The notes under the pieces: generated by a model
Told to the model about the DNA's origin: nothing
Databases searched by the model: none
Seen by the model: the letters and a program-made list of their open reading frames with translations, nothing else
IMG/VR virus record: IMGVR_UViG_3300044797_000094
Span: 1 to 64,000 of that record
Length of the DNA: 64,000 nucleotides
Strand: one strand, 5' to 3'
Source of the DNA: a virus
Shown: piece by piece, positions 12,233 through 58,479 of the stretch
How the letters are laid out: each line of letters starts with the position of its first letter
Numbering within the stretch: the stretch's first letter is position 1
Made by a program: the position numbers and the translations under genes

Positions 12233-15200
12233 ATGGGCAAGCGAGGTCGCAGGTTCCGTAAATCCAGGCAGCAGAACGACGAACGAGAAATCGTCGCGGA
12301 AGTTCCATCGATTCAGAAGTCCTATCACGTCGCGACTTCATCGACGAGCGCCGCTTTGGGGCCTGCCTTGGCGGGTGCCTATGTCGGTGGCGGCTGGATA
12401 AGTGACCACCGTGAAGAGGTGCGTCACTTCCGGCATTTCTCGTACGTCGCAATCCACCAGATCGCGCAGCAGTTGTCGTCAGCGACAGTGACGGCGTTCG
12501 CGGACGAAGATAATCAATGGGACAATCAGTCGCGTAGAAAGTCTCTGCGGGTGAAATTCGGCAGTCTCGATCGATATAAATCCATCTACGGAAAAGAGGA
12601 CGACACATCAACCAAGGCGTTAAATTCCAGTCATGCATTGATGAAGCTGCTGGCCAAGCCGAACCCGTGGGAGTCCGGATACGACTTTCGATATCGGCAA
12701 ACAATCCAAATCAGGCTCACTGGCGCATGCTACATTTGGAACGTGCCAAGTCAATTGCGAACGCCTGACGCTCCGAATGGCGTGCCGTGCCAGCGATTCG
12801 TCATCCCAACGGCGGCCGTCACGCCGATGATGCCAACGGCGGAGTTGCCCTATGGCGGATTTCTCGTTCAGCCGTATTGCTCTCGGTACGCTCCGATCGA
12901 CGAGGACAGCGGATATGTCCGTGGCTCACCTGGCTGGATGCGGCTTCTTGGCCGAGTCGTCGATGCCCGAGAAATCCAGAAGATCGGCTATCCTCATCCT
13001 TTGTGGCTCGATGACTGGCAGAGTCCAATTGCGGCCGGTGATGCGTGGGTCGATATGGAAGAGGCCGTAAATCGAGCGAGGACGGCAAGTACACTGAATG
13101 GCGTTGACCCGTCATTGGTCTGGGAGCTGCCGCCAAACATCAAATTGTCGCCAGACATGATGGACAGGACGCAATCGGCAATCCAGAAAAAGTATGGCGG
13201 TCCATATAATCAGAGTCGAGTTTTGGTGACGGAAAGCGGAACGAAAGTCACGCCAACTTCCGGCGTCCCGAAGGACATGTGCTATCCAGAGGGATTCCAG
13301 GACGTCAAAACGGCGATTCTCTCGCTTCATGGGACGCCGCCAGTCGCGGTCGCGATGCAAGAACCTGGGGCGTACGCGTCGTACATCGCGTCCCTGAAAG
13401 CGTGGAACCACGCGACGATTAATCCACTCTGCGAGAAATTTGGAGAATCCGACACGGCTCATCTCGCTCCATTCTTCGGGGAAGGTTTGACTGTTGAATA
13501 CGAACCAAAAAGTATCCAAGATCCGGACAACGATCTAAAGCTTTTGACGATCCTGGCATCCACTAAAAAGGTCATCAGAGTCAACGAGCTTCGCGCCAAA
13601 TGCGACATGGAGCCGCTGGAAGGACCGGAAGGCGATGCATTCGTCAATGACGACCCGGTTCCAGGAATGCCGCAAGCGAAGCCAAATGGCGTGAATTTGG
13701 GCCGTCCGGACGCGGAAGCGTTGAAGCCGATAGTCAAGCCCGCTGAACCGACCACGCCATTCGAACGCGACGACGGGAACAAGTCACTTTTGGCGGCATT
13801 GGAAGGATTCCGCGAAGAGGACGAGGAATTCGTCCAGCGAAAACTCGGATCGCTGATCGAGAAAGCGGTTGCGGCGAAGCTGAAATCGCTGGAGCCCGGC
13901 GAAGAACCGCGAAAGTACGCGTCGACTCAATTCAATCTGCCGGACGAACTGGCCGATCAAGTACGGAAAATGGGCCAGAGAATCGACCTTGACGACTTGG
14001 CGGAAGACGGACTGGAGGATGAGCCTCACGTGACAATCCTTTATGGACTCACGGAATCCAGCCCCCAATCCGTCAAGCGAGCGTTGTCGGGCTTCCCTGC
14101 TGGTCGGATAGAACTTGGAATGTCGTCTCTGTTCGCGGCGAACGGAACGGAAGCGAGTCGAGGCGGTCCACAATTCGACGTCCTGAAGCTAGACGTTGGC
14201 GGCGATTACATCCATCGAATCCACGATCGACTCGCCGACAAATGCGACTACGAAGTCAGTTGGCCGCTCTACGTGCCACACGTCACGATCGGATACCTAA
14301 GGCCCGGACGAGGCAGAAAATACGTCGGCATGACGGACGTCGAAGGCGAAACATTCCTTGCCGACAAAATGACGTTCTCGAATCAGCAAAAAGACGTGTC
14401 GGTGATTCGGCTGCAACCCCCAGTCAAATCCCGCCAGTCCATCATCGAGCGTCAATTGGCTCATTCCAACGGCAACGGACGAACGAATGAATGGCACGGA
14501 AAAGCGTACGATCCATCGGAGGCGAGGGATGAAAGCGGAGAATGGACGGGGGGGGCTTCGCAACCTGATTCTAAGAAGCCCAATAAGCCGTCAAAAAACG
14601 CTGCGATCTGCCAGATGACCGGGCTGCCGTTCGAAGGTCGCGGGAAGAACCATCCAAAGCTGCGAGAAGTGCTTGACGACGCGATGAAGGATGGCGCCAG
14701 GAATCAGGTGATTGAAGCGATTAAGGACGCTAAAAACCGTGGAACGAACAACATTGAGGATTTTGTCCGCATCGCCAACGAGGCGATTGGAAAAGGCAAG
14801 GAAGATCGACGTCAGGATCGCCGCGAGCAAGTCGAATTGGAGGATGATAGGCGTCGCGAATCACGGGAACGCGACGATCTAAATCGCAAACTACGCGCCG
14901 CTGGATATCGTTGGTCGAAAGAGGGAAATCAAAATTGGCGTGAAACGCCGGAGCAAACTCCGGAATCCCACTTCGAATCCAAATGGGTGCTTCGTAATCA
15001 TCAAGGGGATGTCGTTTCGCTTGATGATGCCAAAAAAGAAATAGCATCCAACGAAAAGTCACTCGGCATGTCAACAGGCGTCGGCGACGACGGCGGCTTC
15101 GCGGTCAAGCCGGAACTGCCGGGCGAACCAAGCAACGAACAGCTCAGAACCCTCTACGGAAACTGTCCGTTCTGTTCTGGCGAAGTCACAGGTCGCGATT

Positions 15201-16597
15201 CCGATCGAATGACTGACACGTGCGATCAAGGTCACTCCTATCCATCGAAGCTGTCAATATTCGATCGACCGTCCGAAGGCGACGTCGCAACAAGCGCTGT
15301 GAATGACGGTCCAATGGGGAACCTGAATGGATTCGCCGATCCATCTGAGAAATCCAACGATCTGATCGACAATACGGAATTCGGGGCGTGCCCTCTGTGC
15401 GGCCAAGACGCGATCATGAGGGAGCGGCGATGGTACGGAAATGTGCCGTATGACTCGTGTTGCAACGGGCACGAGTTCCCGGCTGGAGTCATCGCGACTG
15501 GTGTTCCAAAAGAAAAAACAGCCAAGGCGCATCTTCAGGCTTCACGCAAGTCCTCCGCCTCTGGAGGTCAGTGGATTACACTCAAGCCCCATGGTGGTAA
15601 TGAAGGCGGCTATCTGCATGTCATGATCGATGAGAGTGGCGAGATCCAATCCGGCCCGAAGGAAATGAGAGACAAGAAGCCGAACCAGATTGAATCGCAC
15701 CGTGAGGTCAAGCAGAAACAGAAGTCTCCGCAGAGTCCGCAAGTTGGCACTCCCGATAGCCAAACGGTATCTCAGTCGGAGCAAACAAAAAAAGAATACC
15801 ACGATAGGCTGAGCAATTTGGCATCATCGCCGGTGAAAAGCAGCAAGCCGCTCAGCGGTCATCGAAATCTCAACGAAACACACATCGTGGCGCTGAAAAA
15901 CGGTGACAAGGGAGTTTGGAAACCGGCGTCAGGAGAAACATCATTCGATCACAACGGAGAGCCGATTAGACCCAACATCCCCGCTGGAACACAGCATAAG
16001 AGGGAAGCGGCCGCCAGCGCCGTTGCCGACGCTATTGGACTTCATGATCTAGTCCCAGCCACAACGCTCCGGACGATGGAAAAGGGCGAGAAGAAAGAAA
16101 TCGGATCGCTGCAACATTTCTCCGAACATGGCATTCCGGCGCACGCGACCGCTCGTGACGCGAAATATGATGGCGATCGCGATCTGGCGAGAGCCGCCGC
16201 ATTCGATATTCTGACGTCGAACACCGATCGTCATTTGGGAAACTGGATGGTCACGCACGGGCTAAGTGCACCGAACGATCTGTCATCGGAAAATAAAAAA
16301 TACAATATTGACAAGGAGCATAAGCTCGTTTTGATTGATCACGGGCTGGCATTCCCAGAAAGCGGCGGGAATGGCCGCAGTGGATTAGTCAATATGGCTG
16401 AGCACAAAAAGCTTCCGGTGCCGAATGAAGTTCTAAAATGGGATTCAGCTTCGATCGACGAGGCAATGAAAAAAAACGGCATTGAACCGCGGGCCAGGAG
16501 ACTGGCTCTTGATCGCCTGTCGCAACTCCAGTCTCTTGCGAAAGATGGCAAGACATTCGCGGATGGTTTCAATCAGGACGTGATTCACAGCTATTGA
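12233..16597 (+). CDS. Portal polyprotein: HK97-like portal + 2H phosphoesterase + two Zn-ribbons + HipA/PI3-4K-like kinase
   Basis: Portal (aa ~1-480: LLAKPNP, IRVNELR), HxT motifs PHVTILYG and PHVTIGYL, two CPxC..C..GH motifs, kinase motifs VWKP, REAAA, DRHLGN, LIDHG. Confidence 0.9.
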   Translation: MGKRGRRFRKSRQQNDEREIVAEVPSIQKSYHVATSSTSAALGPALAGAYVGGGWISDHREEVRHFRHFSYVAIHQIAQQLSSATVTAFADEDNQWDNQSRRKSLRVKFGSLDRYKSIYGKEDDTSTKALNSSHALMKLLAKPNPWESGYDFRYRQTIQIRLTGACYIWNVPSQLRTPDAPNGVPCQRFVIPTAAVTPMMPTAELPYGGFLVQPYCSRYAPIDEDSGYVRGSPGWMRLLGRVVDAREIQKIGYPHPLWLDDWQSPIAAGDAWVDMEEAVNRARTASTLNGVDPSLVWELPPNIKLSPDMMDRTQSAIQKKYGGPYNQSRVLVTESGTKVTPTSGVPKDMCYPEGFQDVKTAILSLHGTPPVAVAMQEPGAYASYIASLKAWNHATINPLCEKFGESDTAHLAPFFGEGLTVEYEPKSIQDPDNDLKLLTILASTKKVIRVNELRAKCDMEPLEGPEGDAFVNDDPVPGMPQAKPNGVNLGRPDAEALKPIVKPAEPTTPFERDDGNKSLLAALEGFREEDEEFVQRKLGSLIEKAVAAKLKSLEPGEEPRKYASTQFNLPDELADQVRKMGQRIDLDDLAEDGLEDEPHVTILYGLTESSPQSVKRALSGFPAGRIELGMSSLFAANGTEASRGGPQFDVLKLDVGGDYIHRIHDRLADKCDYEVSWPLYVPHVTIGYLRPGRGRKYVGMTDVEGETFLADKMTFSNQQKDVSVIRLQPPVKSRQSIIERQLAHSNGNGRTNEWHGKAYDPSEARDESGEWTGGASQPDSKKPNKPSKNAAICQMTGLPFEGRGKNHPKLREVLDDAMKDGARNQVIEAIKDAKNRGTNNIEDFVRIANEAIGKGKEDRRQDRREQVELEDDRRRESRERDDLNRKLRAAGYRWSKEGNQNWRETPEQTPESHFESKWVLRNHQGDVVSLDDAKKEIASNEKSLGMSTGVGDDGGFAVKPELPGEPSNEQLRTLYGNCPFCSGEVTGRDSDRMTDTCDQGHSYPSKLSIFDRPSEGDVATSAVNDGPMGNLNGFADPSEKSNDLIDNTEFGACPLCGQDAIMRERRWYGNVPYDSCCNGHEFPAGVIATGVPKEKTAKAHLQASRKSSASGGQWITLKPHGGNEGGYLHVMIDESGEIQSGPKEMRDKKPNQIESHREVKQKQKSPQSPQVGTPDSQTVSQSEQTKKEYHDRLSNLASSPVKSSKPLSGHRNLNETHIVALKNGDKGVWKPASGETSFDHNGEPIRPNIPAGTQHKREAAASAVADAIGLHDLVPATTLRTMEKGEKKEIGSLQHFSEHGIPAHATARDAKYDGDRDLARAAAFDILTSNTDRHLGNWMVTHGLSAPNDLSSENKKYNIDKEHKLVLIDHGLAFPESGGNGRSGLVNMAEHKKLPVPNEVLKWDSASIDEAMKKNGIEPRARRLALDRLSQLQSLAKDGKTFADGFNQDVIHSY

Positions 16598-16617: not shown

Positions 16618-18198
16618 ATGCAAATAATTCGAGTGTCAGGAAACATCGATGGCGAAGACGTCGATTTCGGCGACGTGTGCCTTGACGACGGCCGACTGCA
16701 CTGTCGCTCGTCGTCAGGTCTTGGCCGACGAGTTATGCAAAGCATTCTTGACGAGCCCGTCTACAGCCCTCGAGGCGACGTTACAGCAATTGAAAATCCC
16801 GAAGAATTCTTTCTGCGGCTGCCGACAACCTACCGATCGTACGCGTTGCGGGCTTACCCAATCGATGACGGCTCGGCAGATGCCGCCGAGAAGGCGTTAA
16901 AGAGGGACGTCACAGGAGAGGCAAGAGATCAAACTGGTGAATGGACCTCGGGAGGCGCTTCGACAAAGCCAAGCGTAACGGGAACTCCACGCGTTCCGAA
17001 GCCTCCGACATCGAAGCCATCAAAGAAACCAAATGCCCCGAAGATTGATGAGGATGACGAAGAATCCGGCGGTCGATTCGCAAAGCCTCCCACGCAACGC
17101 GGAGAGATGGTCTATGCCAAGCGAGTCGGCACTGGCAAGAACGTGAAGATCGTTTTGTCCGACGGATCGACTGCGCCGGAGCACATGCAAAAACTGGCCG
17201 GAAGTATTCCGCCGGACTGGAGTGAAGTCAAGATCGCAAAAGATCCGTCAATGGACGTGCTCGTTACAGCAAGAGACCCAAACGGCAATTCGAAGTTGGT
17301 TTACAACGACGCCTACGAAAAACGGAATGAGGCGATTAAGTTTGTGCGTGCGGCGGATATGGTCGCGAATCATGATGTGATTTTGAAAGAGTTCGCCGAA
17401 GATCGACTCAAGTCGGAAACGAGAGAACAAGCGGACTGTGCTCGATTAATGTTGGCCCAGGCGACGAGACCCGGCAGCGAATCTGACAACAAGGGCGTCA
17501 GCAAATACTTCGGCAAATCATTGACTCCAGATGATGTTGTTCTAACGAAAAGCGACAATCCCAAAATCGCAATCATCGGCAAGCAAACCGACGCGCAAAA
17601 GAAAGCGGCCGCCAGCGGTAAAGATGTCGTCGCAATCAATGTCAATGGATCGCTCGTCGTCATCAAGGATAAGAAAACGAAGGCGGAATTATTGAAACGA
17701 GCCAACGAAGGCGGCGACTTGCACGACTCGACGTACTGGCTGAAATCGCACGGCGCGACGACGCTGGAGGGACGACATGTCGTTGAAGCTCCGGATGGGA
17801 CGCGGCTTAAATTTGTCGGAAAAGAAGGCGTCTTCCACGATCACCTGGTCAAAGATCCGGAAGTCGCGAAGATGCTTTTGGAACGCAAAGCGAAATCCGG
17901 CGACACAGGACAGTTATTCAACACGAACGAGATCAAGCTGCGAGATTACGTCAAGACAAAAGACGGCGGCGACTTCCTCTCGAAAGATCTGCGGACCGCT
18001 CGGGCGAACATGATTGCGATCGACGAAATCAATAAGATTCCGGCCCCGAAAACAGACAAGGAATACAAAGCCAAGCGTGATCTTGTGGGGCAGCGGGTGG
18101 CGCATGTGCTCGGAAACGAAATCGCACAGAGCCTAAAGTCATACATTTCGCCGGAATTGTTCTCAGATTGGAGAATCAACGCGGGCGTGCAGGGATGA
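16618..18198 (+). CDS. DNA topoisomerase IB (bacterial/poxviral type) with an N-terminal extension
   Basis: IPPDW N-domain; catalytic set R (ATRPG), GATTL, K (FVGK), R (KDLRT), N (LGN), Y (KSYI). Confidence 0.9.
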   Translation: MQIIRVSGNIDGEDVDFGDVCLDDGRLHCRSSSGLGRRVMQSILDEPVYSPRGDVTAIENPEEFFLRLPTTYRSYALRAYPIDDGSADAAEKALKRDVTGEARDQTGEWTSGGASTKPSVTGTPRVPKPPTSKPSKKPNAPKIDEDDEESGGRFAKPPTQRGEMVYAKRVGTGKNVKIVLSDGSTAPEHMQKLAGSIPPDWSEVKIAKDPSMDVLVTARDPNGNSKLVYNDAYEKRNEAIKFVRAADMVANHDVILKEFAEDRLKSETREQADCARLMLAQATRPGSESDNKGVSKYFGKSLTPDDVVLTKSDNPKIAIIGKQTDAQKKAAASGKDVVAINVNGSLVVIKDKKTKAELLKRANEGGDLHDSTYWLKSHGATTLEGRHVVEAPDGTRLKFVGKEGVFHDHLVKDPEVAKMLLERKAKSGDTGQLFNTNEIKLRDYVKTKDGGDFLSKDLRTARANMIAIDEINKIPAPKTDKEYKAKRDLVGQRVAHVLGNEIAQSLKSYISPELFSDWRINAGVQG

Positions 18199-46414: not shown

Positions 46415-48814
46415 ATGACGACGATACGAGAAGTTGTCGTAAAAGTGAATGTGGAGGCGGGGAGTGTGTCTCTCAATGCCGTGCAAGATCACATTCAAGC
46501 TTGCGTCGACGCGGCGCAGAAGCAGTTGTCGGATATTGGATCGTTTCAAAACACATCATCGTTTCCAGGTCCGGTCGTCGGTGGACTGAATTTTGGCGGC
46601 GGTCGGCCACGTCGACGCGGAGTCATGCAATTGACTCATCCGGGCGGTGACAATACCGTCAGCGAATCCGACGAACGCATGATGCGTGGAGAAGCCGTCA
46701 GCATGTTCGAGCGGCAAGATAGAATTGCTTCGCTCCACACGACACGCGACGCGATGAAGCGCGGCGACGAAACAGCGAAGGCACAAGCCAAGGGCGCGAA
46801 AGAGGCGGCGGATGCGACTGAGGCCGCAAATCAGTCAATGATCAAGCTCAGCAAAGGGCTCGCCCAGGTCGCGGCGTCAGCGTCCAGCACAAATGCGGAG
46901 CTTGTCCGATCAATCGTTGTTATTGAGGGGCTGGCGAATGCGGCGGGGGGATCTAAAGCCGGCGTCATCGCATCAATCGGAGCACAGATCGTTCAGATCG
47001 GCGCGGACGTCGCGAACATCTTCAACGATGCATATCTGCGTGAGGAAGAAATCCGGCACGTCCGCAGCAGGAATGTCGCCGCAACGCAGTCGATGATGTC
47101 GCGTCACGCGGAAGCTCAGTACAGCATTGAGTTGCAGCGCCACATGACGATGGCGATGCAACATCCGACGCTGGAGACCGAAAGATATGTCCCGTGGGCG
47201 ATGAAGCAGCGAATCTCCTACGCCGCGATGAAGTCGTCCTTGAACTCTGACGGTGGAAGCTCTCCCGAAACGCGGGGGCATTTGCGCCATACTCTGGAAA
47301 TTGAGCAATCTGGCATCGACGAAATGACGCAACAGGAGGGCCATATTCGCGGGCTCCTGGAGAAGAAATCGCTTCTTGACGCCACGCCGCAAAACTGGGA
47401 TGAGCGTCGTGCGGGCGTCATTGAGAAGCACAAAAAAGAGCGGGAGGAAATCAAGCGGCGAATCAAGGAAATCCACGACATGCCGGACACGGGAGCGCTC
47501 GGCAATTTGGCCGCATGGACATCGTCTACGGCCGTCGGTGCGTATAAGGGCGTCGTTGACACTGGTCCACAGGCGCTCCGGAGTCCACTTCAGACTCTCA
47601 GATTGGGACAAGAAAAGGAAAAGGCGGCAAAAAGCCACTTAGACGAAGAGCGGGAACTCAACAAAATCGAGGAAGAAAAGAAGTCCTATCTGGAACAACA
47701 AGCAAGACTGCACGAAGACATCTTGAATAAGCTGAACAATGAGCACAAAACAGGCATTCAGATCAAGCAAAACTTCGCCGACAATGTGCGGTCGCTCAAG
47801 GACGCGAAGGACAGCATGCTGGCGCATATTGGCGGCATGGCCCCAGGCCAGCAGTTGCAGGCGATGAATGCACTGAAGCTAAATAAGCAACTCGCGCAGG
47901 CATTTAAAGACCGCGATGCCGGTAAGATGGTTCCAATTCCTGGAGCGGCGGCGAGAAACGCCGCGAAGAAAGCGGCCGCCGACAAGGAAGCGAGACTCGC
48001 CAAGGTTGCGGCGGAGAATGCGGCGGCTCGGCCTAAGAAGGAGATGCCAAACGAGAGAAGCGCCCGACTCGATAAGATCAAATCCGATGCCACCGCGAAA
48101 CGGAAAGCGCAAGAAAACGAACGCCTGGATCGCAATGCGATCGCGAAATTTAAAAAGGCGGAGAAGACATTTACGCGTGCGCAATATCTCGCGATCGATA
48201 GAAATTCCGCAGCCATGAATAAGAAAGGCGCCTCGATACACGAGAAGGTCGAGGCTGCTCAAAAACTTTTTCCAGAAGCATTTGCCGTCAAGAATCGCAC
48301 TCCCGCCGACATCATGAACAAGAGCAAAGCGAATGCTCGTGCCAAAAAAGAGCGCGTCGGAGAACACGAGAAGGAACAGGCATCGGCCGAAGCGATCACG
48401 CCGAAGCCAATTGAGTACGAACCGGAAATGCAATTGACGCCTCGTCCGTATGTGGCCCCATTCCAAAAGGAGCGGATTCAGGCCGCTGGCGGTTCTGATG
48501 AATTAAGAAGGTTGAACATAGAAGAGGCTAAGGAAAAGGGAGCCGAGGATTTAATCCCCGAGGAGCACGACAAGGCGATTGAAGACGCGAAGGCCAAAGA
48601 AAAATCCGGTGGAGCATTCATTGACTCTCTCACGGCCGCCGCCGAAAAACTGGCGCCTGAGATTGCGAAGCGGAATGAAAAGATCGCAGGCCAGATTGTC
48701 GAGGTGTTTTCGAAACTGTTCGGCGGAATGGCCGCGATAGACAAGGCTCTTCAGCGAGTTGAACAGCAGAAAATAGACACCGATACCTCCGTCATCATGA
48801 GGCAGAATCAGTAA
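46415..48814 (+). CDS. Tape measure protein
   Basis: 799-aa helical Ala/Lys/Glu-rich ORF directly after the chaperones. Confidence 0.75.
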   Translation: MTTIREVVVKVNVEAGSVSLNAVQDHIQACVDAAQKQLSDIGSFQNTSSFPGPVVGGLNFGGGRPRRRGVMQLTHPGGDNTVSESDERMMRGEAVSMFERQDRIASLHTTRDAMKRGDETAKAQAKGAKEAADATEAANQSMIKLSKGLAQVAASASSTNAELVRSIVVIEGLANAAGGSKAGVIASIGAQIVQIGADVANIFNDAYLREEEIRHVRSRNVAATQSMMSRHAEAQYSIELQRHMTMAMQHPTLETERYVPWAMKQRISYAAMKSSLNSDGGSSPETRGHLRHTLEIEQSGIDEMTQQEGHIRGLLEKKSLLDATPQNWDERRAGVIEKHKKEREEIKRRIKEIHDMPDTGALGNLAAWTSSTAVGAYKGVVDTGPQALRSPLQTLRLGQEKEKAAKSHLDEERELNKIEEEKKSYLEQQARLHEDILNKLNNEHKTGIQIKQNFADNVRSLKDAKDSMLAHIGGMAPGQQLQAMNALKLNKQLAQAFKDRDAGKMVPIPGAAARNAAKKAAADKEARLAKVAAENAAARPKKEMPNERSARLDKIKSDATAKRKAQENERLDRNAIAKFKKAEKTFTRAQYLAIDRNSAAMNKKGASIHEKVEAAQKLFPEAFAVKNRTPADIMNKSKANARAKKERVGEHEKEQASAEAITPKPIEYEPEMQLTPRPYVAPFQKERIQAAGGSDELRRLNIEEAKEKGAEDLIPEEHDKAIEDAKAKEKSGGAFIDSLTAAAEKLAPEIAKRNEKIAGQIVEVFSKLFGGMAAIDKALQRVEQQKIDTDTSVIMRQNQ

Positions 48815-48816
48815 TC

Positions 48817-49533
48817 ATGCAATTTTTCTATGGGGGATTCACGCACGCCGACAATGAGGTCGCCTACGACTCGATTCAGAAGGCGTTCATCCGCGGAGCG
48901 ACTCAGAGAGCCCACTTGCTGCATGTTGTGTGGAATCTGCGTGGAAAGCTGCTCGGCACGCAATCATCGATCTTCTCTCAATACAACACTCTTTTGCTGG
49001 CCTATCAACAGGATGGGTTTAGTGCTGGATTCAATGGAACTCCATTCACGATCAATGGCCAGCAGGCAATCGGCGGGTGCCGAGTCGTGAGTCCGATCAG
49101 TCACGGCGACTTGGGCGGCGCAGAGATGGTGACGTACCTGAAATACACTTTCGCTCTCGAAGCGGATTTCATGTGGGCGTCGCCGACAGATCCACTTTCA
49201 TTTCAGGAGACAACGACGTTCACGGACAACTATGGTTTTCCGATGTATATTGAACTTCTGCCAGTTTCCGGATTGCCGATACTCCAGCAGGTCACGGATT
49301 CATCGTGGTATTTCGGAACGCAATCGGGAAGCCTGACGCAAGCCGGTCCGGGGCCGGTTCCAATGCCACCGCTATTTCCGGGTAATTTGAGGACGTCGGC
49401 AGGCGCGGCCAGAACGCTGAGTTGGGGAAGCCCGAAGATGATCAGAGGAAATCCGATCGAGTATTCCGTGAACTGGCGGTACGAATATATTTCGAGTTTG
49501 CCATTTCAAGCGTACCCGAACCAAGTAGGATAA
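48817..49533 (+). CDS. Distal tail / tail-tip protein
   Basis: Position after the tape measure gene. Confidence 0.55.
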   Translation: MQFFYGGFTHADNEVAYDSIQKAFIRGATQRAHLLHVVWNLRGKLLGTQSSIFSQYNTLLLAYQQDGFSAGFNGTPFTINGQQAIGGCRVVSPISHGDLGGAEMVTYLKYTFALEADFMWASPTDPLSFQETTTFTDNYGFPMYIELLPVSGLPILQQVTDSSWYFGTQSGSLTQAGPGPVPMPPLFPGNLRTSAGAARTLSWGSPKMIRGNPIEYSVNWRYEYISSLPFQAYPNQVG

Positions 49534-49541
49534 TGAGTTAA

Positions 49542-50783
49542 ATGTCAAGCAAGCAATGGGTCGGAAATGCCGCCGCGGTCTTGGACGTCTGGGTCATAAG
49601 TCTCTCAGGCACCGTCACAAGCCAAACCTACAGCGTCACAATCAACAGCAAGTCCATTACGTATGTGGCCGGGAGCGGCGATACGGTGGCGACGATCCTC
49701 GCGGGGCTTGTCACTGCGTGGCAAAACCTTCAGATTCCGCCTCCGGTCGAATTCAGTGAATTGACTCCAGTGGTGTCCGGTACAACGATCGTCGCCACGG
49801 CGAATGCGGCTGGAAATCCATGCGTGATTTCAGTGTCAACGGGCGGTAGTGCGACGTTCACAATCGCGCACACACAATCGGCGACAGGACCGAACGATTT
49901 CGCGAACGCTCAAAACTGGGTTGGGGGCGTCGCACCGGCCAATGGCGACACCCTGATCTTCGACAACGGATCAACAAGCTGCCTGTTCGGACTCTCGACA
50001 TCGCTGACGGGAATCACCGTGAACGTCAATCCGGGATTTTCCGGAAACATCGGGCTGCCGATCATCAACAGCAATAACAGCACTCCGTACGCGGAATATC
50101 GAACTCGGGCATTGACGTTGACCGGTGGGACGGCGGTCATAAATTCCGGTTCACTTTCTCGGTGCAATCTGGCATTCGGATCGACGGCCGCCACGGTGCG
50201 GGCTCAGCAGACGGGCAGGCGAATCGACGCGAATACGCCCGTCGTGTTGATCACGGGTGGAGCGAGCGGAAGTCAACTGGATGTCAGTAAAGGGGATGTC
50301 GGAGTTGCGTTCTATCAGACCGATACAGCGAACTTCCCGACGATCCTGACGACGTATATCAGCAATGCATTGACCGACGTGACGCTCTACTGCGGACCAG
50401 GGGCGACTCTGGGAACGATCACCGCCAATGGCGGGAACATGACGATCAACAGCAATGTGACGACATTGACGATGGGGACCGGAGGCGGAATTCTTCTCAT
50501 CAACGCGGGTGCCGTCACAACACTGACGGCCGACAATGGGACGATCCTATACAACTCGACCGGCACTCTTGGAACATGCATTCTCGCCGGAAACGCGACC
50601 CTTTCATTCGATCAAGATCCGAGAGCCAAGACGTTAACTAATCCTATCGAAGTCTACGGAAACTCCGCGATCGTCGCGGACAACAATAAAGTCGTAAATT
50701 CCGGAACTCTGAGCGTTACGACTTACCTCACGACGGCAATTAATGTTCAGCACGGTGCTGGATCGGCCATGACGTTCACGTGA
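49542..50783 (+). CDS. Tail-associated beta-helix-like protein
   Basis: NW.GG.AP.NGDTL.F motif and T/G/N-rich strands. Confidence 0.6.
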   Translation: MSSKQWVGNAAAVLDVWVISLSGTVTSQTYSVTINSKSITYVAGSGDTVATILAGLVTAWQNLQIPPPVEFSELTPVVSGTTIVATANAAGNPCVISVSTGGSATFTIAHTQSATGPNDFANAQNWVGGVAPANGDTLIFDNGSTSCLFGLSTSLTGITVNVNPGFSGNIGLPIINSNNSTPYAEYRTRALTLTGGTAVINSGSLSRCNLAFGSTAATVRAQQTGRRIDANTPVVLITGGASGSQLDVSKGDVGVAFYQTDTANFPTILTTYISNALTDVTLYCGPGATLGTITANGGNMTINSNVTTLTMGTGGGILLINAGAVTTLTADNGTILYNSTGTLGTCILAGNATLSFDQDPRAKTLTNPIEVYGNSAIVADNNKVVNSGTLSVTTYLTTAINVQHGAGSAMTFT

Positions 50784-50799
50784 TACGATGGCATGAATA

Positions 50800-52680
50800 A
50801 TGACGAGCACGAATAAAGGCGTCTTCTCGTATCCAGGTGTTTCACCGGTCGGCTGGCTGTCGTTCAGCTTCACCGACTGGGCCGGTATCAGCCCAGCCAT
50901 CGGCCTTTTGAAGATGGTGCCGCAACTTGGATTTCCAGATCTCAATGGAAACATTGTTCTCACATACAACAACACGACGGTCGTCCTGCAAAACTGTCAT
51001 ATCGATGCGATCTTTTTCGAACGTGGCAGCGGCGGAAAGATCCTCAACGTCCGTTTCTTCGACGAACGATGGGCCTGGAAGGACCGATCGATCACGGGCA
51101 ACTACAATTTCCTTCTACCGAATGGCTGGGTAGATCCGCTACATGAGGCCGATCCGCAGACCTTGGTGTCACTGTGCTTTCAGGCGCTGGGGGTCCAGAA
51201 TTACGACGTGTCGGCTCTGCCGTTGGATGCGAGGCCGATCGTCGACTGGGACCACGCCAATGCGGCCGAGGCGGCGGCCGACATCTGCGATCAATTGGGC
51301 TGCCGGATCGTACCGCAGAGATCAACGGGAGCGTGGGTCGTCTGCTTCACTGGAGTTGGTAACACCCTGCCGAATAACTGGCCGTATCGAGACCCGGGCG
51401 ACGGAATCGATCCGCAGGAAGTTCCGGATTACATTAAAATCGTGTCGGCTCCGATCGACTATCAGATGGCTGTTCGCCTTGAGGCCGTCGGACGTGACCG
51501 AAATCTTGGATGGCAACGGATTGACTATCTGAAGTACGCGCCAGACCCGCACGGTGATAGCCCCTATGGATTCGATTTGGGCTCTGTCGACTTCGCGTCG
51601 CTTAATCCCAATCGATTTCGGCTACCAGATGGCACGGTGACCAGCGATCGAGAATTGGCGTTGCAGACGATCTGCAAATGTTTCCGGATTCGTGATACAT
51701 ATCCGTTTCAATTCGCGGCGACGCCCACGAAGAAAAACCCGATACCCGATCCAACAAAAGCCACAATCACGGTCCCTGGGTATCCGACAAAGGTCTTTCG
51801 AAAGCAGATGATTCTGAGCAATCGCTTGGTCACGACGTATGTCGACGCATGGAACGAGCAACACACCAGGCCGGCATTTATCAGCGGTCTGTTTTGGAGT
51901 CCAAATGGCATGTCGGCTGGCGGCAACTTTCCATTCGGAAAACGAATCGACTCGCAGGTTAAAAACTACGATCAGATCAGCGAGGAAGACCAGACGACGT
52001 TCAGTCTGTCTCTTGACGAAGTCGATTCAGACCGCTCAATCATCACCCTCTCCCAGGCGCTGCGGTACAACAAGAGCGTGAGCTTCCAGGATGTCGATAT
52101 GGACGTGCCACAATTGTGGTTGACGTGCGCCGTGAATGTCCGCGATCTCTACACGTGGCAACCCGTCCGCAACGAGTTCTTTTATCAAATTGGAAACGGC
52201 ACCGACACGACGTTTTGCCGAACCGTGATCCAGGAAGACGTCAAACCCTATTATGTCACGACGTATCTGCCGGAAGTTGACGCCAACGGCGACTTGAAGT
52301 ATTCCACTGTCGAGGGAAATAGCGGAAAGAACATCCCAGGAACCGTCGACAATAGCGATGAAGTGGCGGCGATGAGCCTCTATTACGCTCAGCAAATCGC
52401 ACAAACCTACATCACGCAAAACACGTCCGAGAAAACGTATCTTGGAATTTTCCCTCTTGATATGGACGGAGCGGTCCAGCAAATCAGCTATTCAATCGGC
52501 GGTACAAATGGAGGAACAACGATGAGGGCGTCCCTGAATACCGAACATGATTGGCGGCTGCCGGGATATGACGAACGCCGACAGCGCGACGGACGGCACA
52601 ATATCATCGAGAAAATGATTCTGCAAAAAGAAATCGGCTATCGACGAGCCCAGAGAGCACGTGGAGGCGTCGACACGTGA
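50800..52680 (+). CDS. Baseplate hub / tail-tip protein
   Basis: Position; D.RWAW, 'P.VDWD....A.A...CD.LGCRIV'. Confidence 0.55.
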   Translation: MTSTNKGVFSYPGVSPVGWLSFSFTDWAGISPAIGLLKMVPQLGFPDLNGNIVLTYNNTTVVLQNCHIDAIFFERGSGGKILNVRFFDERWAWKDRSITGNYNFLLPNGWVDPLHEADPQTLVSLCFQALGVQNYDVSALPLDARPIVDWDHANAAEAAADICDQLGCRIVPQRSTGAWVVCFTGVGNTLPNNWPYRDPGDGIDPQEVPDYIKIVSAPIDYQMAVRLEAVGRDRNLGWQRIDYLKYAPDPHGDSPYGFDLGSVDFASLNPNRFRLPDGTVTSDRELALQTICKCFRIRDTYPFQFAATPTKKNPIPDPTKATITVPGYPTKVFRKQMILSNRLVTTYVDAWNEQHTRPAFISGLFWSPNGMSAGGNFPFGKRIDSQVKNYDQISEEDQTTFSLSLDEVDSDRSIITLSQALRYNKSVSFQDVDMDVPQLWLTCAVNVRDLYTWQPVRNEFFYQIGNGTDTTFCRTVIQEDVKPYYVTTYLPEVDANGDLKYSTVEGNSGKNIPGTVDNSDEVAAMSLYYAQQIAQTYITQNTSEKTYLGIFPLDMDGAVQQISYSIGGTNGGTTMRASLNTEHDWRLPGYDERRQRDGRHNIIEKMILQKEIGYRRAQRARGGVDT

Positions 52681-53747
52681 GCGATCGCGATCCGCAAATC
52701 GGCGTACTCGTACAAAACGATTCCGGCTTGGATATTCCGCCAAGATCGGTCGTCGTGATCGATTGGGTGGAAATCACGCCGACGTACGAGATGAATGAGT
52801 CGATCGCGATTCACCACATCGTGCGGTACACCGGTCAAGCGGGCAATCTTCTCGTTACCAGCAACTCCATACTCAAGGCTGGCCAGACCAGTTCGTCAAG
52901 CAGCATTCAGGCCCCACCGTCGACGGCCTCCGCGTCTGACAGCTCGACGGGAATTGGATGGTGGAACCCCGCGAACTCCTATGGACGAGCCTTCGCGGAT
53001 CAACGCATTTGCGTGGCTCTTGATCCAACCGTCGCGCCTCCATTGCCAGGCGAGGAATGGGGGCCGACTCCGAATCAATGGTACATCACAAGAGGCGGAG
53101 TCGGATTTCAGTCGGATGGGTATCCGACCGGGGATGATGGGTCGGCGAGTTCGTCGACGATTTGGATACCGTCCGGGTCATCGTCGTATTCGAGTTCTGG
53201 TTTCACATTTCCGTATGGGCAGTTCGATGTATTCTTTCGCGGAGCCACGGCATCCGGATCAGGAGGAGGAGGAGGAGGCGGGGGTGCGGGCGCCTATGGC
53301 GGTTGTCCAAACTGCTTTGTCTGTCCTGGGACGCCAACGATTTTTTCATGCGATGCAGCCCCGAGCGGGGCGTATCTTCAATATTTCATTCAGAGCATCG
53401 ATTGGGCGGACCCGTATAGCGTTTTTGCTCCTGATGGAACGATCACTATATGGTACGCGGTGGCCAGCGACTGCGGATCATCGGCAAGTGTTGGAAGTTC
53501 CGCATCAAGCAGCGGAAGCGGATGCATCTGGTACTCATGCCCGATCATTATTTGTCAAACTCCATCAAGCAGCTCGAGCTCGGGAAGCTCCAGTAGTTCG
53601 TCAACTTGCGGGACGTACCAATGGCAGATGGAGATCGTCACTATAACAGACGCATTTGGAAACTCAGTTCCGGCGATGCAGATGGTGCCGTTCTTTCTTT
53701 CCGGGACGGATTGGCTGCCGGACGGATTCTCGGAGACGCTCTCATGA
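52677..53747 (+). CDS. Tail-tip protein with multiple poly-Ser tracts and a Cys-rich C-terminal region
   Basis: 'VQNDSG.DIPP.SVV' N-domain; at least five Ser runs. Confidence 0.65.
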   Translation: MSDRDPQIGVLVQNDSGLDIPPRSVVVIDWVEITPTYEMNESIAIHHIVRYTGQAGNLLVTSNSILKAGQTSSSSSIQAPPSTASASDSSTGIGWWNPANSYGRAFADQRICVALDPTVAPPLPGEEWGPTPNQWYITRGGVGFQSDGYPTGDDGSASSSTIWIPSGSSSYSSSGFTFPYGQFDVFFRGATASGSGGGGGGGGAGAYGGCPNCFVCPGTPTIFSCDAAPSGAYLQYFIQSIDWADPYSVFAPDGTITIWYAVASDCGSSASVGSSASSSGSGCIWYSCPIIICQTPSSSSSSGSSSSSSTCGTYQWQMEIVTITDAFGNSVPAMQMVPFFLSGTDWLPDGFSETLS

Positions 53748-53917
53748 GGGTGCAGTCCCTTCAACCATTCAATCCATTATGTGGATCTAACGTCGTGTTT
53801 TTAAGACGAGAAACGCTGCCACAGCAAATGCCGGTGGCATGCATGACCTGCATCACCCCGTCGACGCCGCCGCCGGCGTCGTCCAGCAGCGACTCTTCAA
53901 GCGGCTCCAGCAGCTAA
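53744..53917 (+). CDS. 57-aa FxPLCxS-family peptide A with a poly-Ser tail
   Basis: ATGA-coupled; MRVQSLQPFNPLCGSN...TLP...CMTCITP...SSSSDSSSGSSS. Confidence 0.75.
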   Translation: MRVQSLQPFNPLCGSNVVFLRRETLPQQMPVACMTCITPSTPPPASSSSDSSSGSSS

Positions 53918-53931
53918 AGCGGCGTCGGAAG

Positions 53932-55017
53932 ATGAAATTCATCAGTACAAAATTATTTGATCCGCTCTGTTCATCGACGTTATCGCTCGTCCGTGCCGAC
54001 ACTTTACCGCCGACAGTTTTAGGCGCTGGCTCAGGATGCATTTTCTGCCTCGGAGCCAATGGATCGCCCCCCTACCAACCATGTCAAGGTGACTCGTTTA
54101 ATGTCAATTGCTGCTGTTCGTGTTTTAACGCTGAATGGCCTGGCGGAGGCGGCGATACGCCGAGCAACGCAGAACCGAGCGTTCCGATTGGTTTTCAGAA
54201 CTCCGTGACGCTTCTCGGCAGCGGACCGCCATACGTGACAGGCAGCACTGTCATAAACGACACGTGTGGTCAATATTACCGGCCCTTCACTTATGCACCG
54301 AACACGCCCTATTGGGGATACACAATCAATCCTGGTGGCATCGGCGATTGCCCATGCGTTTACAATCTTTCTGATGTTCCCACCGGAATGGTCGCAACAT
54401 TGTTTCAACAGCCAGACACGGTAGATTCTGATGGAAATCTCATCTGGGAACTCGGAATCCAATTCGCGACGTGTGGAAGTCTTGAACCCACCTTCTGGCT
54501 GCATTATGCGTGCGACAAATTTTCCTGCAAAAAAGGAGGCGTCTTTATTTTCGATGGGCATCAAAGCGGTACGCTCTATGGCGGCGGAACTATTCCAGAT
54601 CAGGTCACCGTCGTTCCGGCTACGTCATGCAATACGGAGTCATATGACGCGCTCGCGGGCGTCACATCGATCTCATGCACATTCGATTCTACATTTGCCT
54701 CTTCTCCTTTTTATTCTCCGTGCCCAAATCCAATTACGGCTACAGGCGCATTCGGACCTGGTGGGTGGCAGGGGAATTGCGCAGCCAGGTTTGGAATAAC
54801 AATCATCTGTGTTGCTGGTGGCATATACGTTTACGCAGGGTCCAATCCCAGTGGATTCGGGAACGAATTCGCGTATTATTATTCAACAGATGTCTCAAAT
54901 GGCATGACCCTCGACACGTCGAACATTTATCGCGTCCTGGATAACTATTATCCCGACTGCAACACGACGCTGCTGCCGAATACCATTATTCCGTACTCAA
55001 TCCAGTTGAATTGGTAA
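53932..55017 (+). CDS. Cys-rich protein B starting with the FxPLCxS module (putative receptor-binding protein)
   Basis: MKFISTKLFDPLCSST...TLP...CIFCL, followed by about 320 aa of Cys/Gly/aromatic-rich sequence. Confidence 0.75.
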   Translation: MKFISTKLFDPLCSSTLSLVRADTLPPTVLGAGSGCIFCLGANGSPPYQPCQGDSFNVNCCCSCFNAEWPGGGGDTPSNAEPSVPIGFQNSVTLLGSGPPYVTGSTVINDTCGQYYRPFTYAPNTPYWGYTINPGGIGDCPCVYNLSDVPTGMVATLFQQPDTVDSDGNLIWELGIQFATCGSLEPTFWLHYACDKFSCKKGGVFIFDGHQSGTLYGGGTIPDQVTVVPATSCNTESYDALAGVTSISCTFDSTFASSPFYSPCPNPITATGAFGPGGWQGNCAARFGITIICVAGGIYVYAGSNPSGFGNEFAYYYSTDVSNGMTLDTSNIYRVLDNYYPDCNTTLLPNTIIPYSIQLNW

Positions 55018-55020
55018 TCC

Positions 55021-55200
55021 ATGAGAATCGTGTCAGAGTCAGGATTCAGTCCTCTTTGCAACTCGCTCTTGATTGTGCAAGACCGGAGCACATTGCCGAC
55101 GACGCCCTACGGACTAGGCGGACCATTATTTCCCGCCGGATGCTATATTTGTCTTGTTCCCGTTTCCACTTCAAGTAGCTCGGGAAGCAGCAGTTCATGA
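55021..55200 (+). CDS. 59-aa FxPLCxS-family peptide C with a poly-Ser tail (missing from the ORF track)
   Basis: MRIVSESGFSPLCNSLLIVQDRSTLPTTPYGLGGPLFPAGCYICLVPVSTSSSSGSSSS; ATGA-coupled to the GT25 gene. Confidence 0.75.
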   Translation: MRIVSESGFSPLCNSLLIVQDRSTLPTTPYGLGGPLFPAGCYICLVPVSTSSSSGSSSS

Positions 55201-56300
55201 ACCGCTATTTCGATCGCACAGTCGTCATTAATCTTCAGCGGCGTCCAGACAGACGGTCGCAGATTCTTGACGAATTCAAAAAAGGCTGGCCGTTCGCTGA
55301 TCCGACGTTCTTCAACGCGATCGATGGCAGGAAACTTATGTGCCCCGTTGGATTCAACGAAGGAAACTTCGCATGGGCGTGTTTTCAGTCGTTTCGGAGA
55401 GTTGTGGAGTTGGCGGTCAATGATGGAATTGAATCGCTTTTGATCCTTGAAGATGACGCCGTTCTGTGCGAAAACTTCTCTGAAAAAGCCTCGGCGTTCA
55501 TGGCCGACGTTCCCGAAGATTGGGACTTCGTCTGGTTCGGCGGCCATCACATGAACACTCCGAAATTCGTGAAGCCGGGTTACATGCAATCCGTCCACAT
55601 GGATCGCAACCACGGATTCGGTGTGCGCGGCAAAGCATTGAAGGAACTCTATCGCTATTGGCATCAATGGCACGTCGGCCATTGCGACTGGGCGATAAGC
55701 CAATGGGTTTCGAGGTGGCGTTCGTATTGCCCTGAAGGCGACTGGCTCATCGGCCAACGCGGCGGCTGGTCGGACATCAAATTCCAGAACAAGCCGCAGG
55801 AATGGTGGAACGCAAGCGGGTACGTTCCGCCGCCGATTCCGAATCCAATACGAAGCGGAATGCCATTTGTTCCGGGTCGTCGTCAATTTGTTGGCAAAAT
55901 TATTCCAGGGGTTGTGATCATGGAAGGCGTCGGAAGAGAAGTTGAAAAGATCCTGAAATCGTTCGGCGTGGCAATGCCGATATGCGGCGAGTGCAGGCTG
56001 TGGATCGATCGCATGAATAAATGGGGGCCAGATGGCTGCGAACAAAATCGCGAGGAGATCCTCAAGCGGCTCCGTCAACACGCGGTCGCACTGAACATCC
56101 GCGATAAATTGCGTATGGGAATCGGCGCGTTCTATACTGGTTTCTGGCGAAAGGTCCGCTGGTACGATCCCGCTCCCGGAATTCTTGATGAGGCGATTCG
56201 AATTGTGAAAGAACGCGAATCCAAGATTGTGACGGATCAGGACTTCGTTTCGTCCATGCTGACGAAGGCCGGAGTTCCGATAGAACTTGCGGAGAAATGA
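55197..56300 (+). CDS. GT25-family glycosyltransferase with a C-terminal C..C...MN.WG.DGC domain
   Basis: VVINL.RR.DR, AIDG, AC..S, LILEDD, P.DWD...FGG. Confidence 0.88.
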   Translation: MNRYFDRTVVINLQRRPDRRSQILDEFKKGWPFADPTFFNAIDGRKLMCPVGFNEGNFAWACFQSFRRVVELAVNDGIESLLILEDDAVLCENFSEKASAFMADVPEDWDFVWFGGHHMNTPKFVKPGYMQSVHMDRNHGFGVRGKALKELYRYWHQWHVGHCDWAISQWVSRWRSYCPEGDWLIGQRGGWSDIKFQNKPQEWWNASGYVPPPIPNPIRSGMPFVPGRRQFVGKIIPGVVIMEGVGREVEKILKSFGVAMPICGECRLWIDRMNKWGPDGCEQNREEILKRLRQHAVALNIRDKLRMGIGAFYTGFWRKVRWYDPAPGILDEAIRIVKERESKIVTDQDFVSSMLTKAGVPIELAEK

Positions 56301-56835
56301 ACTGGCGTTGATTTTTTACTCACCTTCATTCATCATTCGTCTCGCAAGTCGAATCCAGCGACTTTACAATGAGAACGCACCGGATTTATTTCCGTCGCGG
56401 CCCAAAGTGAACTGCTGGATTCAGTTTGCCGCGGGCTTTTTCTTTTGATGGGCTCGCGTAACTGAGAAAAGAGGCCAGTTATGTTTCAGAGAACTTTGCA
56501 CGTTAAAAGAACTCTGCGGGTTCAGCCCCGAATGGATGCGATTCAAATCTCTCGCAGTAAGCTCCGATCGACGAAAGGTATGTTCCGCATCATGCGGTTT
56601 TCCTGGGAACGGGTTGGTAGTTGATCCAACACAAGAGCGACGTCCAGGTCCATATCCGAAAGAAACAAAAACGACCACATTAAGTTGACCGAAGCTTTTT
56701 ACCATAGCACGCCTCTGATTGTGCGAGATCCTTTCTGGACGTTGGCGAAAGCCTTATTCGGAGGGGATGCTCTTTTGACTTGAGGCGAATCGCATGCAAC
56801 AATCCTGACCGACATTTACTCATGAGGAGCTTGAT

Positions 56836-58479
56836 TTGGCTGATCTTCTGAATACTTTCCAGCGTGTTGTCGTCATCAATCTTTCCCGCCGCATCGACCG
56901 TAAGGAATCGGTCACGAAAGAACTGGCGAACTGGCCCTTTAAGCAGCCGATCTTCCAAGTCGGCGTCGACGGAGAAATGGTCACCGCTCCTGATGGATTC
57001 CGAGAAGGCAACAATGTCTGGGGTTGTCTGCAAAGCCACAGGCACGCCTTGGAAGACGCTCTGAACAACGATTGCGACTCATTGCTCGTCCTGGAGGACG
57101 ACGTCGTCCTATGCCCCGATTTCAACGCCATGGCGGAACAGTTCATTTCTGAAATGCCGGAAGACTGGGAAATCTGCTTTCTTGGCGGCCACCATATGGT
57201 TTCTCCGATGGATCTGTCGGAAAACGTCGTCCGATGTGTTCAGATGGACCGCTGTCACGCTTATGCGCTGAAGGGACGCGGACTTCGGGAACTTTACCGA
57301 TATTGGCACCAATGGCATCCAGGCCATTGTGACCACGCAATTTCGAAATGGGTCGCGGACTACAAAGCCTATGCGCCGAAAAGCTGGCTGATCGGCCAAA
57401 AAGGCGGCTACAGCGACATTCTGCGGGACAACGACGAGCAACTGTTGAAGGGCGAGGAATGGTGGAATCCGGGAACGCCAATTCCGTTAGACCGAGTCGC
57501 TCGATCGATCAACGATCTGCCCTGCAAATTTCGCGGAGAATTCGCTGGCGTTCGCGACGTTTATACGCCGATGTGGAAATGCTCCGAAGAATCGAACAAA
57601 CTCGGCCTGACGACGTTCTGGCAGTACAAACTGGATCAGCCGGAATTCAATTGTTCGAGTTGCGATAAGCGACCGAGAACACCAGAGGAAATCCGGTTCG
57701 ACGAAATCAAAATTGCATGGAAGAATCGCAAGGAAGTCAAAACATCGGAGAAGCCGATCCTGACGGCCGCTTTGCCCACAAGGGGCAGGGGCGAGCAATG
57801 CAAGAAATCAATCCAATCGTTCTACGAAACAACCAGGGGCCACGATCGGGAATGCGTCGTGGTAAGTCATCCAGACTCCGCCGTGCCGATTCTACGCGAA
57901 ATGGAACTCCGTCAAGACCTGTATCCGGGACTGCGGGTGTTTGTTGAAGACACAGACGCGATCTCGGCATGGAACATCGCGTTCAAGCATTCGCGTGGGT
58001 TTTTCATTTCGATCTCGGACGATGACCTTGAATACGCATTTGGATGGTTTGAAGCACTATTAAAGAAGTGGGAAGGATACGGCGGACCGGAGGTTGCGCT
58101 TCTGGGCCTGTGGGATCCAGACGCGCGCGTTCAACGCGGGGAATTGTTCACGAGGTCCGTCCTGACGAGGCCGTTTTGCATGACGGTCATGGGGGGCGTT
58201 CTTTGCGTGCCGTATGTCAAAAGGTGGTGGAACGATAACAGCACCACTCTCCTCGCGCGGAAGGCCAATTGTGCGTATCCGTGTTTTGAGGCGGTGATCA
58301 AGCATCATCAAGCGGCGCTCGGGCTTAGTGTCTGGGATGAAACAGCGGAGATCGGAAAACAACGCGGCATCAACGACCAGAGACTGTTTGAGGAATGGAA
58401 GGCGCGTGGAGCGAAGATTGAATGGAAGTCTATATTCGATGAAGCAAATCAAACACAGTTGACGGGAGCCGAGCGCTGA
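56836..58479 (+). CDS. GT25 + Cys linker + GT2-like (GT-A) double glycosyltransferase
   Basis: VVINLSRRIDR, GCLQSH, LVLEDD; second domain ALPTRGR, AWN, SDDD, WWND. Confidence 0.85.
   Translation: MADLLNTFQRVVVINLSRRIDRKESVTKELANWPFKQPIFQVGVDGEMVTAPDGFREGNNVWGCLQSHRHALEDALNNDCDSLLVLEDDVVLCPDFNAMAEQFISEMPEDWEICFLGGHHMVSPMDLSENVVRCVQMDRCHAYALKGRGLRELYRYWHQWHPGHCDHAISKWVADYKAYAPKSWLIGQKGGYSDILRDNDEQLLKGEEWWNPGTPIPLDRVARSINDLPCKFRGEFAGVRDVYTPMWKCSEESNKLGLTTFWQYKLDQPEFNCSSCDKRPRTPEEIRFDEIKIAWKNRKEVKTSEKPILTAALPTRGRGEQCKKSIQSFYETTRGHDRECVVVSHPDSAVPILREMELRQDLYPGLRVFVEDTDAISAWNIAFKHSRGFFISISDDDLEYAFGWFEALLKKWEGYGGPEVALLGLWDPDARVQRGELFTRSVLTRPFCMTVMGGVLCVPYVKRWWNDNSTTLLARKANCAYPCFEAVIKHHQAALGLSVWDETAEIGKQRGINDQRLFEEWKARGAKIEWKSIFDEANQTQLTGAER

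Follow-up and report, generated by a model that had tools for sequence, protein, structure and literature searches.

Anchoring variable receptor-binding parts by means of a conserved N-terminal element is a known principle, and in podophages of Klebsiella (KP32, K11, KP34) a primary receptor-binding protein (RBP) with a branching domain is accompanied by a secondary RBP whose N-terminus bears a short conserved peptide for docking (PMC6872550; PMC13352976). A locus comparable with that arrangement was analysed in a 64,000-nucleotide (nt) stretch of phage DNA (the window), which is the first 64 kb of the 76,387-bp IMG/VR virus record IMGVR_UViG_3300044797_000094 and which carries three consecutive genes (designated A, B and C) whose products begin with the same module of about 40 amino acids (aa), downstream of a gene for a 356-aa adaptor protein with a Cys-rich C-terminal half (designated the dock). 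As in the Klebsiella branched RBPs, a short conserved N-terminal element is found on otherwise variable proteins, distal parts are swapped and the docking domain lies on the protein of the preceding gene. Unlike in those phages, three fixed paralogous modules take the place of a single peptide, modules and dock alike are rich in Cys and bear poly-Ser, some members (minis) are reduced to the adaptor alone, and binding, which was demonstrated experimentally there, is here predicted from the genes. No sequence or fold relation between the two systems was found, and the dock, examined for a T4 gp10-like branching domain, gave no Pfam or PDB sequence match and a model too poor for a fold search.

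In the BppU-BppL system of TP901-1 and Tuc2009 a post-hub adaptor grips the RBPs by their N-termini with its C-terminal part; those RBPs are homotrimers of one kind, and no homology is detectable. Virophage DSLV2 and related Synechococcus phages possess tripartite heterotrimeric tail proteins (PMC12724248). These resemble the present locus in that three consecutive conserved paralogous genes are involved (here in fixed order in six contigs), which there give one heterotrimer; they differ in being T4 gp37-like fibres of similar length, whereas here the chains have only their first ~40 aa in common, with distal parts that are missing or unrelated, and a heteromer is presumed. As far as our literature searches reach, three features appear to be undescribed: a fixed trio of old paralogous modules, a portable Cys/poly-Ser dock which moves with the trio between tail proteins, and members reduced to an adaptor plus a Ser tail.

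Three paralogous genes and their module

On balance we favour the reading that A, B and C belong, as fixed members, to a conserved trio of adaptors and that the dock and the three paralogues make up an adaptor complex at the tail tip of a siphovirus-like peat phage. The three genes, as defined by sequence and tree, are:

53744-53917, + strand: A, position-1 paralogue (FNPLC type), 57 aa, module and Pro/Ser tail only
53932-55017, + strand: B, position-2 paralogue (FDPLC type), 361 aa, module, CCxxCF..WPG motif and Cys-rich distal part
55021-55200, + strand: C, position-3 paralogue (GFSPLC type), 59 aa, module and Ser tail only

The open reading frames (ORFs) and the shared module were found as the original prediction had described them: the first 39-47 residues of A, B and C align as M[RK]xxSxxxFxPLCxS..TLP..CxxC, with 12 invariant columns (M1, S5, F9, P11, L12, C13, S15, T24, L25, P26 and the two Cys of CxxC), A and C terminate in Ser runs, and B is Cys-rich (20 Cys, 5.5%, vs 0.1-1.4% in the capsid, tube, tape-measure-like and hub-like proteins). 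The ATGA overlaps which it had described were also present, between the stop of the upstream gene and the start of A (53744-53747) and between the stop of C and the start of a GT25 glycosyltransferase gene (55197-55200). A GGAG lies 8 nt 5' of the ATG of A. Exactly three copies of the module occur in the whole virus record, and their DNA has diverged while the residues have been kept.

The public gene call for B is 392 aa, 31 codons longer at the 5' end (53839-53931), and overlaps the end of A in another frame. Judged by the conserved module start in six phages (see below), the start of B is fixed at 53932 and the public call is too early. A -1 frameshift linking A to B was considered and set aside as unnecessary, given the conserved Met start of position-2 genes in the same six phages.

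A profile built from the three window modules only was searched against 1.84 billion representative proteins and matched seven foreign proteins (E-value 2.6e-4 to 9.5e-4). Coverage of the full profile from residue 1 was observed in five of the seven; P0016, a 59-aa orphan mini, matched profile positions 1-28 from residue 1, and the match in the seventh protein, P0017, was short and internal (profile 34-43 at residues 762-771). Weak internal partial matches to the same profile were given by P0008 and P0010, while P0009, P0011 and P0018 were discarded as false matches, being translated arrays of clustered regularly interspaced short palindromic repeats (CRISPR). In these a CRISPR repeat read as FQSxxGFxPxCD mimics SxxGFSPLC in many copies, a source of false positives to be filtered in any census. 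With a profile of eight sequences the E-values improved to between 3e-15 and 1e-5 and two further proteins were added. The resulting consensus is MRIxSLGxFNPLCxSxLVxxNRETxPxPxGLxCKPCxxP, and a module of 39-47 aa stands at residue 1 in 18 of 18 positional genes and in six orphan proteins. In most long members it is followed by CCxxCF..WPG, then by a Ser-rich linker and then by a variable, mostly Cys-rich distal part; the minis, of which four are known, end inside or just past the Ser linker, most members being 182-426 aa in length.

A, B, C and the dock gave no match in Pfam and marginal ones only in PHROGs (phrog_1708 to A, E-value 0.053, absent from the other members), a PDB sequence search with the module gave nothing significant, and a word-based search with B retrieved B alone. 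AlphaFold2 (AF2) modelling of B with 12 relatives gave a mean predicted local distance difference test score (pLDDT) of 54 and a best fold-search Z of 5.2, with no fibre match standing out; the ESM Atlas held no usable match for B.

Related contigs (L004, L005, L006, L008, L010, L012 and L014) were gathered by searches with the 356-aa protein, the position-1 modules and the C-terminal half containing the dock; they come from different metagenomes, and L011 is a truncated near-copy of L010. Beyond the window, the module is conserved in five further phage contigs. Each locus in the window, L004, L008, L010, L012 and L014 has three full-length modules and no more, all starting from an initiator Met, in the constant order FNPLC-type, FDPLC-type, GFSPLC-type (6/6 contigs). 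The genes are 49 to 426 aa in length and tightly packed (junctions of -4 to +14 nt in L004, L008, L010, L012 and L014), the shortest being the position-1 mini of L004 (49 aa, the last seven residues Ser). No module genes were detected in L005-L007 (L005 and L006 over 10-20 kb).

A maximum-likelihood tree was constructed from 15 modules of five contigs (L014 was found afterwards and left out). Each gene position fell on one side of a branch (support 84/78, 91/92 and 81/89), the number of label changes was the minimum of two, which was matched by none of 200 shuffles, and grouping by phage was rejected for four of the five phages, namely L010 (p about 1e-71), L012 (1e-6), L004 (0.006) and L008 (0.024). 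Since the modules cluster by gene position and not by phage, the triplication is, on this sequence evidence, old and predates these phages, each copy having stayed distinct and in its place, and the copies are not interchangeable. This result does not support the interchangeable, either/or loading that had been proposed for the module, as the modules represent three old paralogue lineages, each bound to its position and all three always present.

Selection on the short genes was assessed by comparison of the window with L004, between which synonymous sites are saturated (proportion of synonymous differences, pS, about 0.8) and mismatches are highest at codon position 3. Identical residues were found at 18 of 39 positions between A and the L004 position-1 gene, 13 of these by way of other codons, and at 23 of 39 positions between C and the L004 position-3 gene, 17 of these by way of other codons. 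Judged by these comparisons, the module is under protein-level selection, mini-ORFs included. The Ser tracts are encoded by AGY and TCN codons mixed, hence they are not microsatellites, and the mixed codons indicate that Ser is selected at the protein level.

The position-3 proteins of L010 (7330-8241) and L012 (9527-10480) contain unbroken runs of 33-40 Ser, in place of which that of L008 (3275-4555) has a Ser/Pro repeat. All three end in a common Cys-rich C-terminal knot, which C of the window does not have.

The dock and the upstream genes

The genes immediately upstream of A encode the following:

50800-52680, + strand: hub-like tail protein, 626 aa, gene preceding that of the 356-aa adaptor (Atlas structural neighbours; position of homologues)
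52677-53273, + strand: N-terminal domain of the 356-aa adaptor, beta-tulip-like fold (AF2, VIA-align)
53274-53747, + strand: dock, Cys-rich C-terminal half with two positionally conserved poly-Ser tracts, ending SGTDWL..ETL (sequence conservation)

The dock comprises window residues ~200-356 (~160 aa) of the adaptor, is 49-70% identical to the docks of L004, L008, L010 and L012 and is also present in L014. Its features are a CxxCxxC core in GCGCCDCFNC, VGGC..AAPxGA, a Ser tract, CxWxSC, a second Ser tract and CGxYQW...SGxDWLxIAETL. It is joined to the beta-tulip-like N-domain in the window, L004 and L008 and to an unrelated 425-aa body in L012, and it stands alone (191 aa) in L014. In L010 (3999-5566) the dock ORF (5009-5566) and the last part of the 361-aa ORF before it share Ser/Gly-rich sequence in different frames; the dock could be a separate gene or be joined by a frameshift, either programmed or an assembly error.

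Dock and trio occurred together in 6/6 contigs, the trio following the dock with an overlap or gap of 0-5 nt except in L010, where one 131-aa gene lies between them. L005 and L006 have kept the hub-like gene and the N-domain with another C-terminus, and these have neither dock nor trio. The searches were reciprocal, module queries leading to docks and a dock query leading to a new trio (L014). These observations bear on the original prediction that the module docks onto the Cys-rich domain of the upstream protein: the part that stood is that the module behaves as an N-terminal attachment element, co-occurring with the dock in 6/6 contigs and absent where only the N-domain is kept, while physical docking itself stays a prediction. 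A complex prediction for the upstream protein (7-row alignment) and A (9-row alignment) scored 0.12 vs a mark of 0.32 and says nothing either way on binding. When the upstream and B families were compared profile to profile, the only match was a 7-column CCxCF (E-value 0.29), and a PDB sequence search with the dock gave nothing significant. In L006, an ORF (10750-10989) after the dock-less adaptor homologue opens with CCCTGC and CCPC motifs and lacks a module, perhaps forming the same joint in another way.

In the AF2 model of the 356-aa protein, most of residues 1-150 reached a pLDDT of about 60-88, apart from a loop of low confidence at 72-93, and the dock region had 25-59, too poor for a fold search. 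VIA-align of the N-domain gave Z 10.1 (9ocb_H, root-mean-square deviation 3.3, 122 aligned), 10.0 (9kmg_a), 9.1 (5wk1_X) and 7.7 (6qyy_A, the phi29 gp8.5 base). Seven chains reached a Z of at least 8, six of them from capsid reconstructions (the TW1 capsid-stabilizing protein being explicitly named) and one a C-terminal fragment of the phi29 gp12 tail appendage. The N-domain thus shares its fold (Z 7.7-10.1) with the beta-tulip proteins T1 gp48 (PMC11945409), phi29 gp8.5 (6qyy) and TW1 gp56 (5wk1), and has a C-terminal extension as T1 gp48 does; unlike in these proteins, its gene follows a hub-like gene and not the capsid gene, and the extension is the dock, which is found on other bodies too. 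A capsid-cement-type beta-tulip fold directly after a tail-hub-like gene, as seen in five phages, is an unusual place for the fold. The only PHROGs match of the 356-aa protein (phrog_23036, E-value 0.036, in the N-domain) was marginal and implausible.

Nearly all long ORFs of the window lie on the + strand, and terminase, portal-fusion, HK97-type capsid (37953) and tail-tube (44439) genes are among those present, after which the order is a 799-aa tape-measure-like ORF, ORFs of 238, 413, 626 and 356 aa, A, B and C. When ten ORFs (46415-58479) were compared with family libraries, matches above threshold were obtained only for two downstream glycosyltransferases and for none of the upstream ORFs; PDB sequence searches with the hub-like and the 238-aa protein gave nothing significant. 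The ESM Atlas model of the 626-aa protein has Phage_GPD, Phage_base_V, gp44-like and VgrG-related clusters as neighbours at template-modelling (TM) scores of 0.39-0.47, which is a lead only. The upstream ORFs were assigned to the tail because of the gene order and this lead. Homologues of the 626-aa protein lie directly 5' of the adaptor gene in L004, L005, L006 and L008. In L010 the order is an HK97-gp10-like gene, tail completion gp17, a long tape-measure-like ORF, one further gene, the dock and the trio.

Two side observations were made elsewhere in the window. The portal gene (12233-16597) is fused to regions matching PI3/PI4-kinase-like and 2'-5' RNA-ligase-like sequences, and the next gene (16618-18198) matches a eukaryotic-type topoisomerase I core.

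The proposed joint and competing explanations

In the adaptor complex favoured here, the 356-aa protein would be seated on the tail hub by its N-domain, and the ~40-aa N-terminal Cys module of each chain would join the other modules and the dock. Past the module, a Ser-rich linker would lead to a distal domain which can be freely gained, swapped or lost. In the window phage this domain is kept by B only, A and C being adaptor-only subunits that were presumably retained as all three modules are needed to build the joint. We infer the physical binding and the stoichiometry of this complex from the genes.

It is possible, and we suggest it tentatively, that a single, obligate joint of four chains is built from the dock and the three modules at a shared Cys centre (a metal site or inter-chain disulfides), with one Cys from each module and one from the dock, the distal domains being optional and the 'headless' subunits displaying glycosylated poly-Ser tails. 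All three modules of L014 have lost the first Cys of CxxC (Y, W and E stand there instead), and its dock has Gly where the other five contigs share an invariant Cys; these four coupled losses suggest that the residues meet in one centre. Gly stands at this dock position in P0003 too, and the mini P0016 has no first CxxC Cys. Two dock Cys columns are also co-present or co-absent in nine sequences (C/C in six, T/T in three), which may be the pattern of a bonded pair, or possibly a single event if the T/T docks share ancestry. An argument from Cys parity, that all Cys of dock and trio are paired, was dropped, as the totals are even in the window phage and odd in L004.

Several observations weigh against the adaptor complex or its placing at the tail tip. 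The coordinated Cys loss is from a single lineage (n=1), and the predicted models of module and dock have a pLDDT mostly under 50. Minis occur in just two of the six phages and could be recent losses, and the contigs of one metatranscriptome cover just 52677-52826 and 56168-56300, outside A, B and C. As to location, the TM scores behind the hub assignment are all <0.5, by fold the N-domain is most like capsid cement and head-fibre proteins, and in L012 the dock gene comes after a 1213-aa ORF of unknown family and not after a recognised tail gene.

A rather doubtful contender is that the paralogues form three separate homo-oligomeric fibres, each homotrimeric and with its own site on the dock or tail tip, the minis then filling two of these three sites as short stubs that carry glycans. 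Homotrimeric fibres anchored by N-terminal peptides are usual (PMC6872550, PMC13352976), the position-specific orthology is equally compatible with three distinct sites, and the dock has three Cys-bearing segments split by two conserved Ser tracts. The joint loss in L014 of the same Cys in three modules together with a dock Cys is, however, easier to explain with one shared centre, and the strict presence of one of each in 6/6 loci also suits a shared complex.

It is unlikely that A and C are decaying remnants, truncated at the Ser linker, non-functional and possibly untranslated. Long forms predominate (14 of 18 positional genes and most orphans), the minis stop exactly where long forms have the Ser linker, and the RNA contigs found leave both genes uncovered. 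Against decay, the module residues have been kept despite saturated synonymous divergence, A has a properly spaced GGAG, and no out-of-frame remnant is present 3' of A or C, the next gene following 14 nt on or with a 4-nt overlap; in addition, a poly-Ser position-1 mini recurs in L004 at only about 46% identity.

A location on the head is decidedly unlikely. The 356-aa protein would then be a beta-tulip capsid cement protein with the dock projecting outward and carrying the trio, in the manner of phi29 gp8.5 or T1 gp48. The N-domain does find its best matches among capsid decoration proteins (Z 9-10) and in the head-fibre base of phi29 (Z 7.7), and the beta-tulip protein T1 gp48 has a C-terminal part that protrudes and is presumed to assist adsorption (PMC11945409). 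However, hub-like gene stop and adaptor gene start overlap, distant from the capsid gene, in five phages (window, L004, L005, L006 and L008), the L010 dock lies in a tail module after the tape-measure-like ORF and one further gene, and docks are found with no beta-tulip domain at all in L012 and L014. For the dock and trio we infer a place at the tail tip in preference to a head fibre.

The suggestion that the genes encode precursors akin to glycocin-like ribosomally synthesised and post-translationally modified peptides, with a conserved leader and a variable core that is glycosylated by neighbouring enzymes and released as a peptide, would suit tandem genes with a constant N-terminus and a variable rest, two of them peptide-sized, beside glycosyltransferases, but is hardly credible, as members reach 182-426 aa with large, partly conserved distal parts, the Cys residues lie in the conserved part, the genes are translationally coupled to virion genes, the trio follows the dock in six phages and no leader peptidase, transporter (exporter) or immunity family was matched in the ten ORFs scanned (46415-58479).

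Glycosyltransferases and significance of the trio

Two glycosyltransferase genes downstream of the trio were matched to families:

55197-56300, + strand: GT25 glycosyltransferase, ATGA-coupled to C (Pfam PF01755, E-value 2.3e-10)
56836-58479, + strand: GT25-GT2 two-domain glycosyltransferase (PF01755, E-value 1.1e-8; PF00535, E-value 2.8e-7)

These are accompanied by two GT4-type genes (five glycosyltransferase domains in all) and RmlD. GT25 genes lie 3' of the trio in both the window and L004, and the inter-domain Cys linker of the GT25-GT2 protein recurs in the L014 post-trio gene. Ser runs on the coding strand are found nowhere but in the 356-aa protein, in A and C and at the C-terminus of ORF 2419-2853. 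It is plausible that the Ser tracts of the dock, A and C are glycosylated by the adjacent enzymes, for which they would be likely acceptors. ORF 2419-2853 (144 aa, no Pfam family) lies far from the tail genes and ends exactly in SSASSSS; it may be a further acceptor.

The post-trio genes of L012 (10490-12004) and L014 (8273-10138) are homologous (45% identity over 266 aa) and have a DxD-like motif and WLDxDNYFV. That of L012 gave a weak PHROG beta-1,4-glycosyltransferase match (E-value 0.006) and a sub-threshold match to Pfam DUF6171; no Pfam family was found for the post-trio genes of L014 and L010 (8600-9583), of which the latter resembles the former at its start by eye. The genes of L012 and L014 may constitute an undescribed glycosyltransferase family.

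In mycobacteriophages, glycosylation of virion capsid and tail-tube subunits, with phage glycosyltransferases encoded beside structural genes, has been described (Freeman et al. 2023, PMID 37329881, cited in PMC11256854). The present locus is alike in that phage glycosyltransferases adjoin structural genes, and unlike in that the candidate acceptors are poly-Ser tracts in putative tail-tip proteins and two mini-proteins. In the mycobacteriophages, C-terminal stretches of virion proteins reportedly act as glycan acceptors.

DNA of the window phage was recovered in peat metagenomes of two studies. Module and dock represent two new protein families without Pfam, PHROG or PDB relatives, and the trio/dock signature offers a simple way to spot host-recognition genes in uncultured peat phages. 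The system also allows the ideas of a mixed-chain joint and of glycosylated peptides at the tail tip to be put to the test and, if the suggested four-chain joint is real, the phage tail tip would carry an asymmetric attachment device made of three different chains, with small peptides as structural components of the virion.

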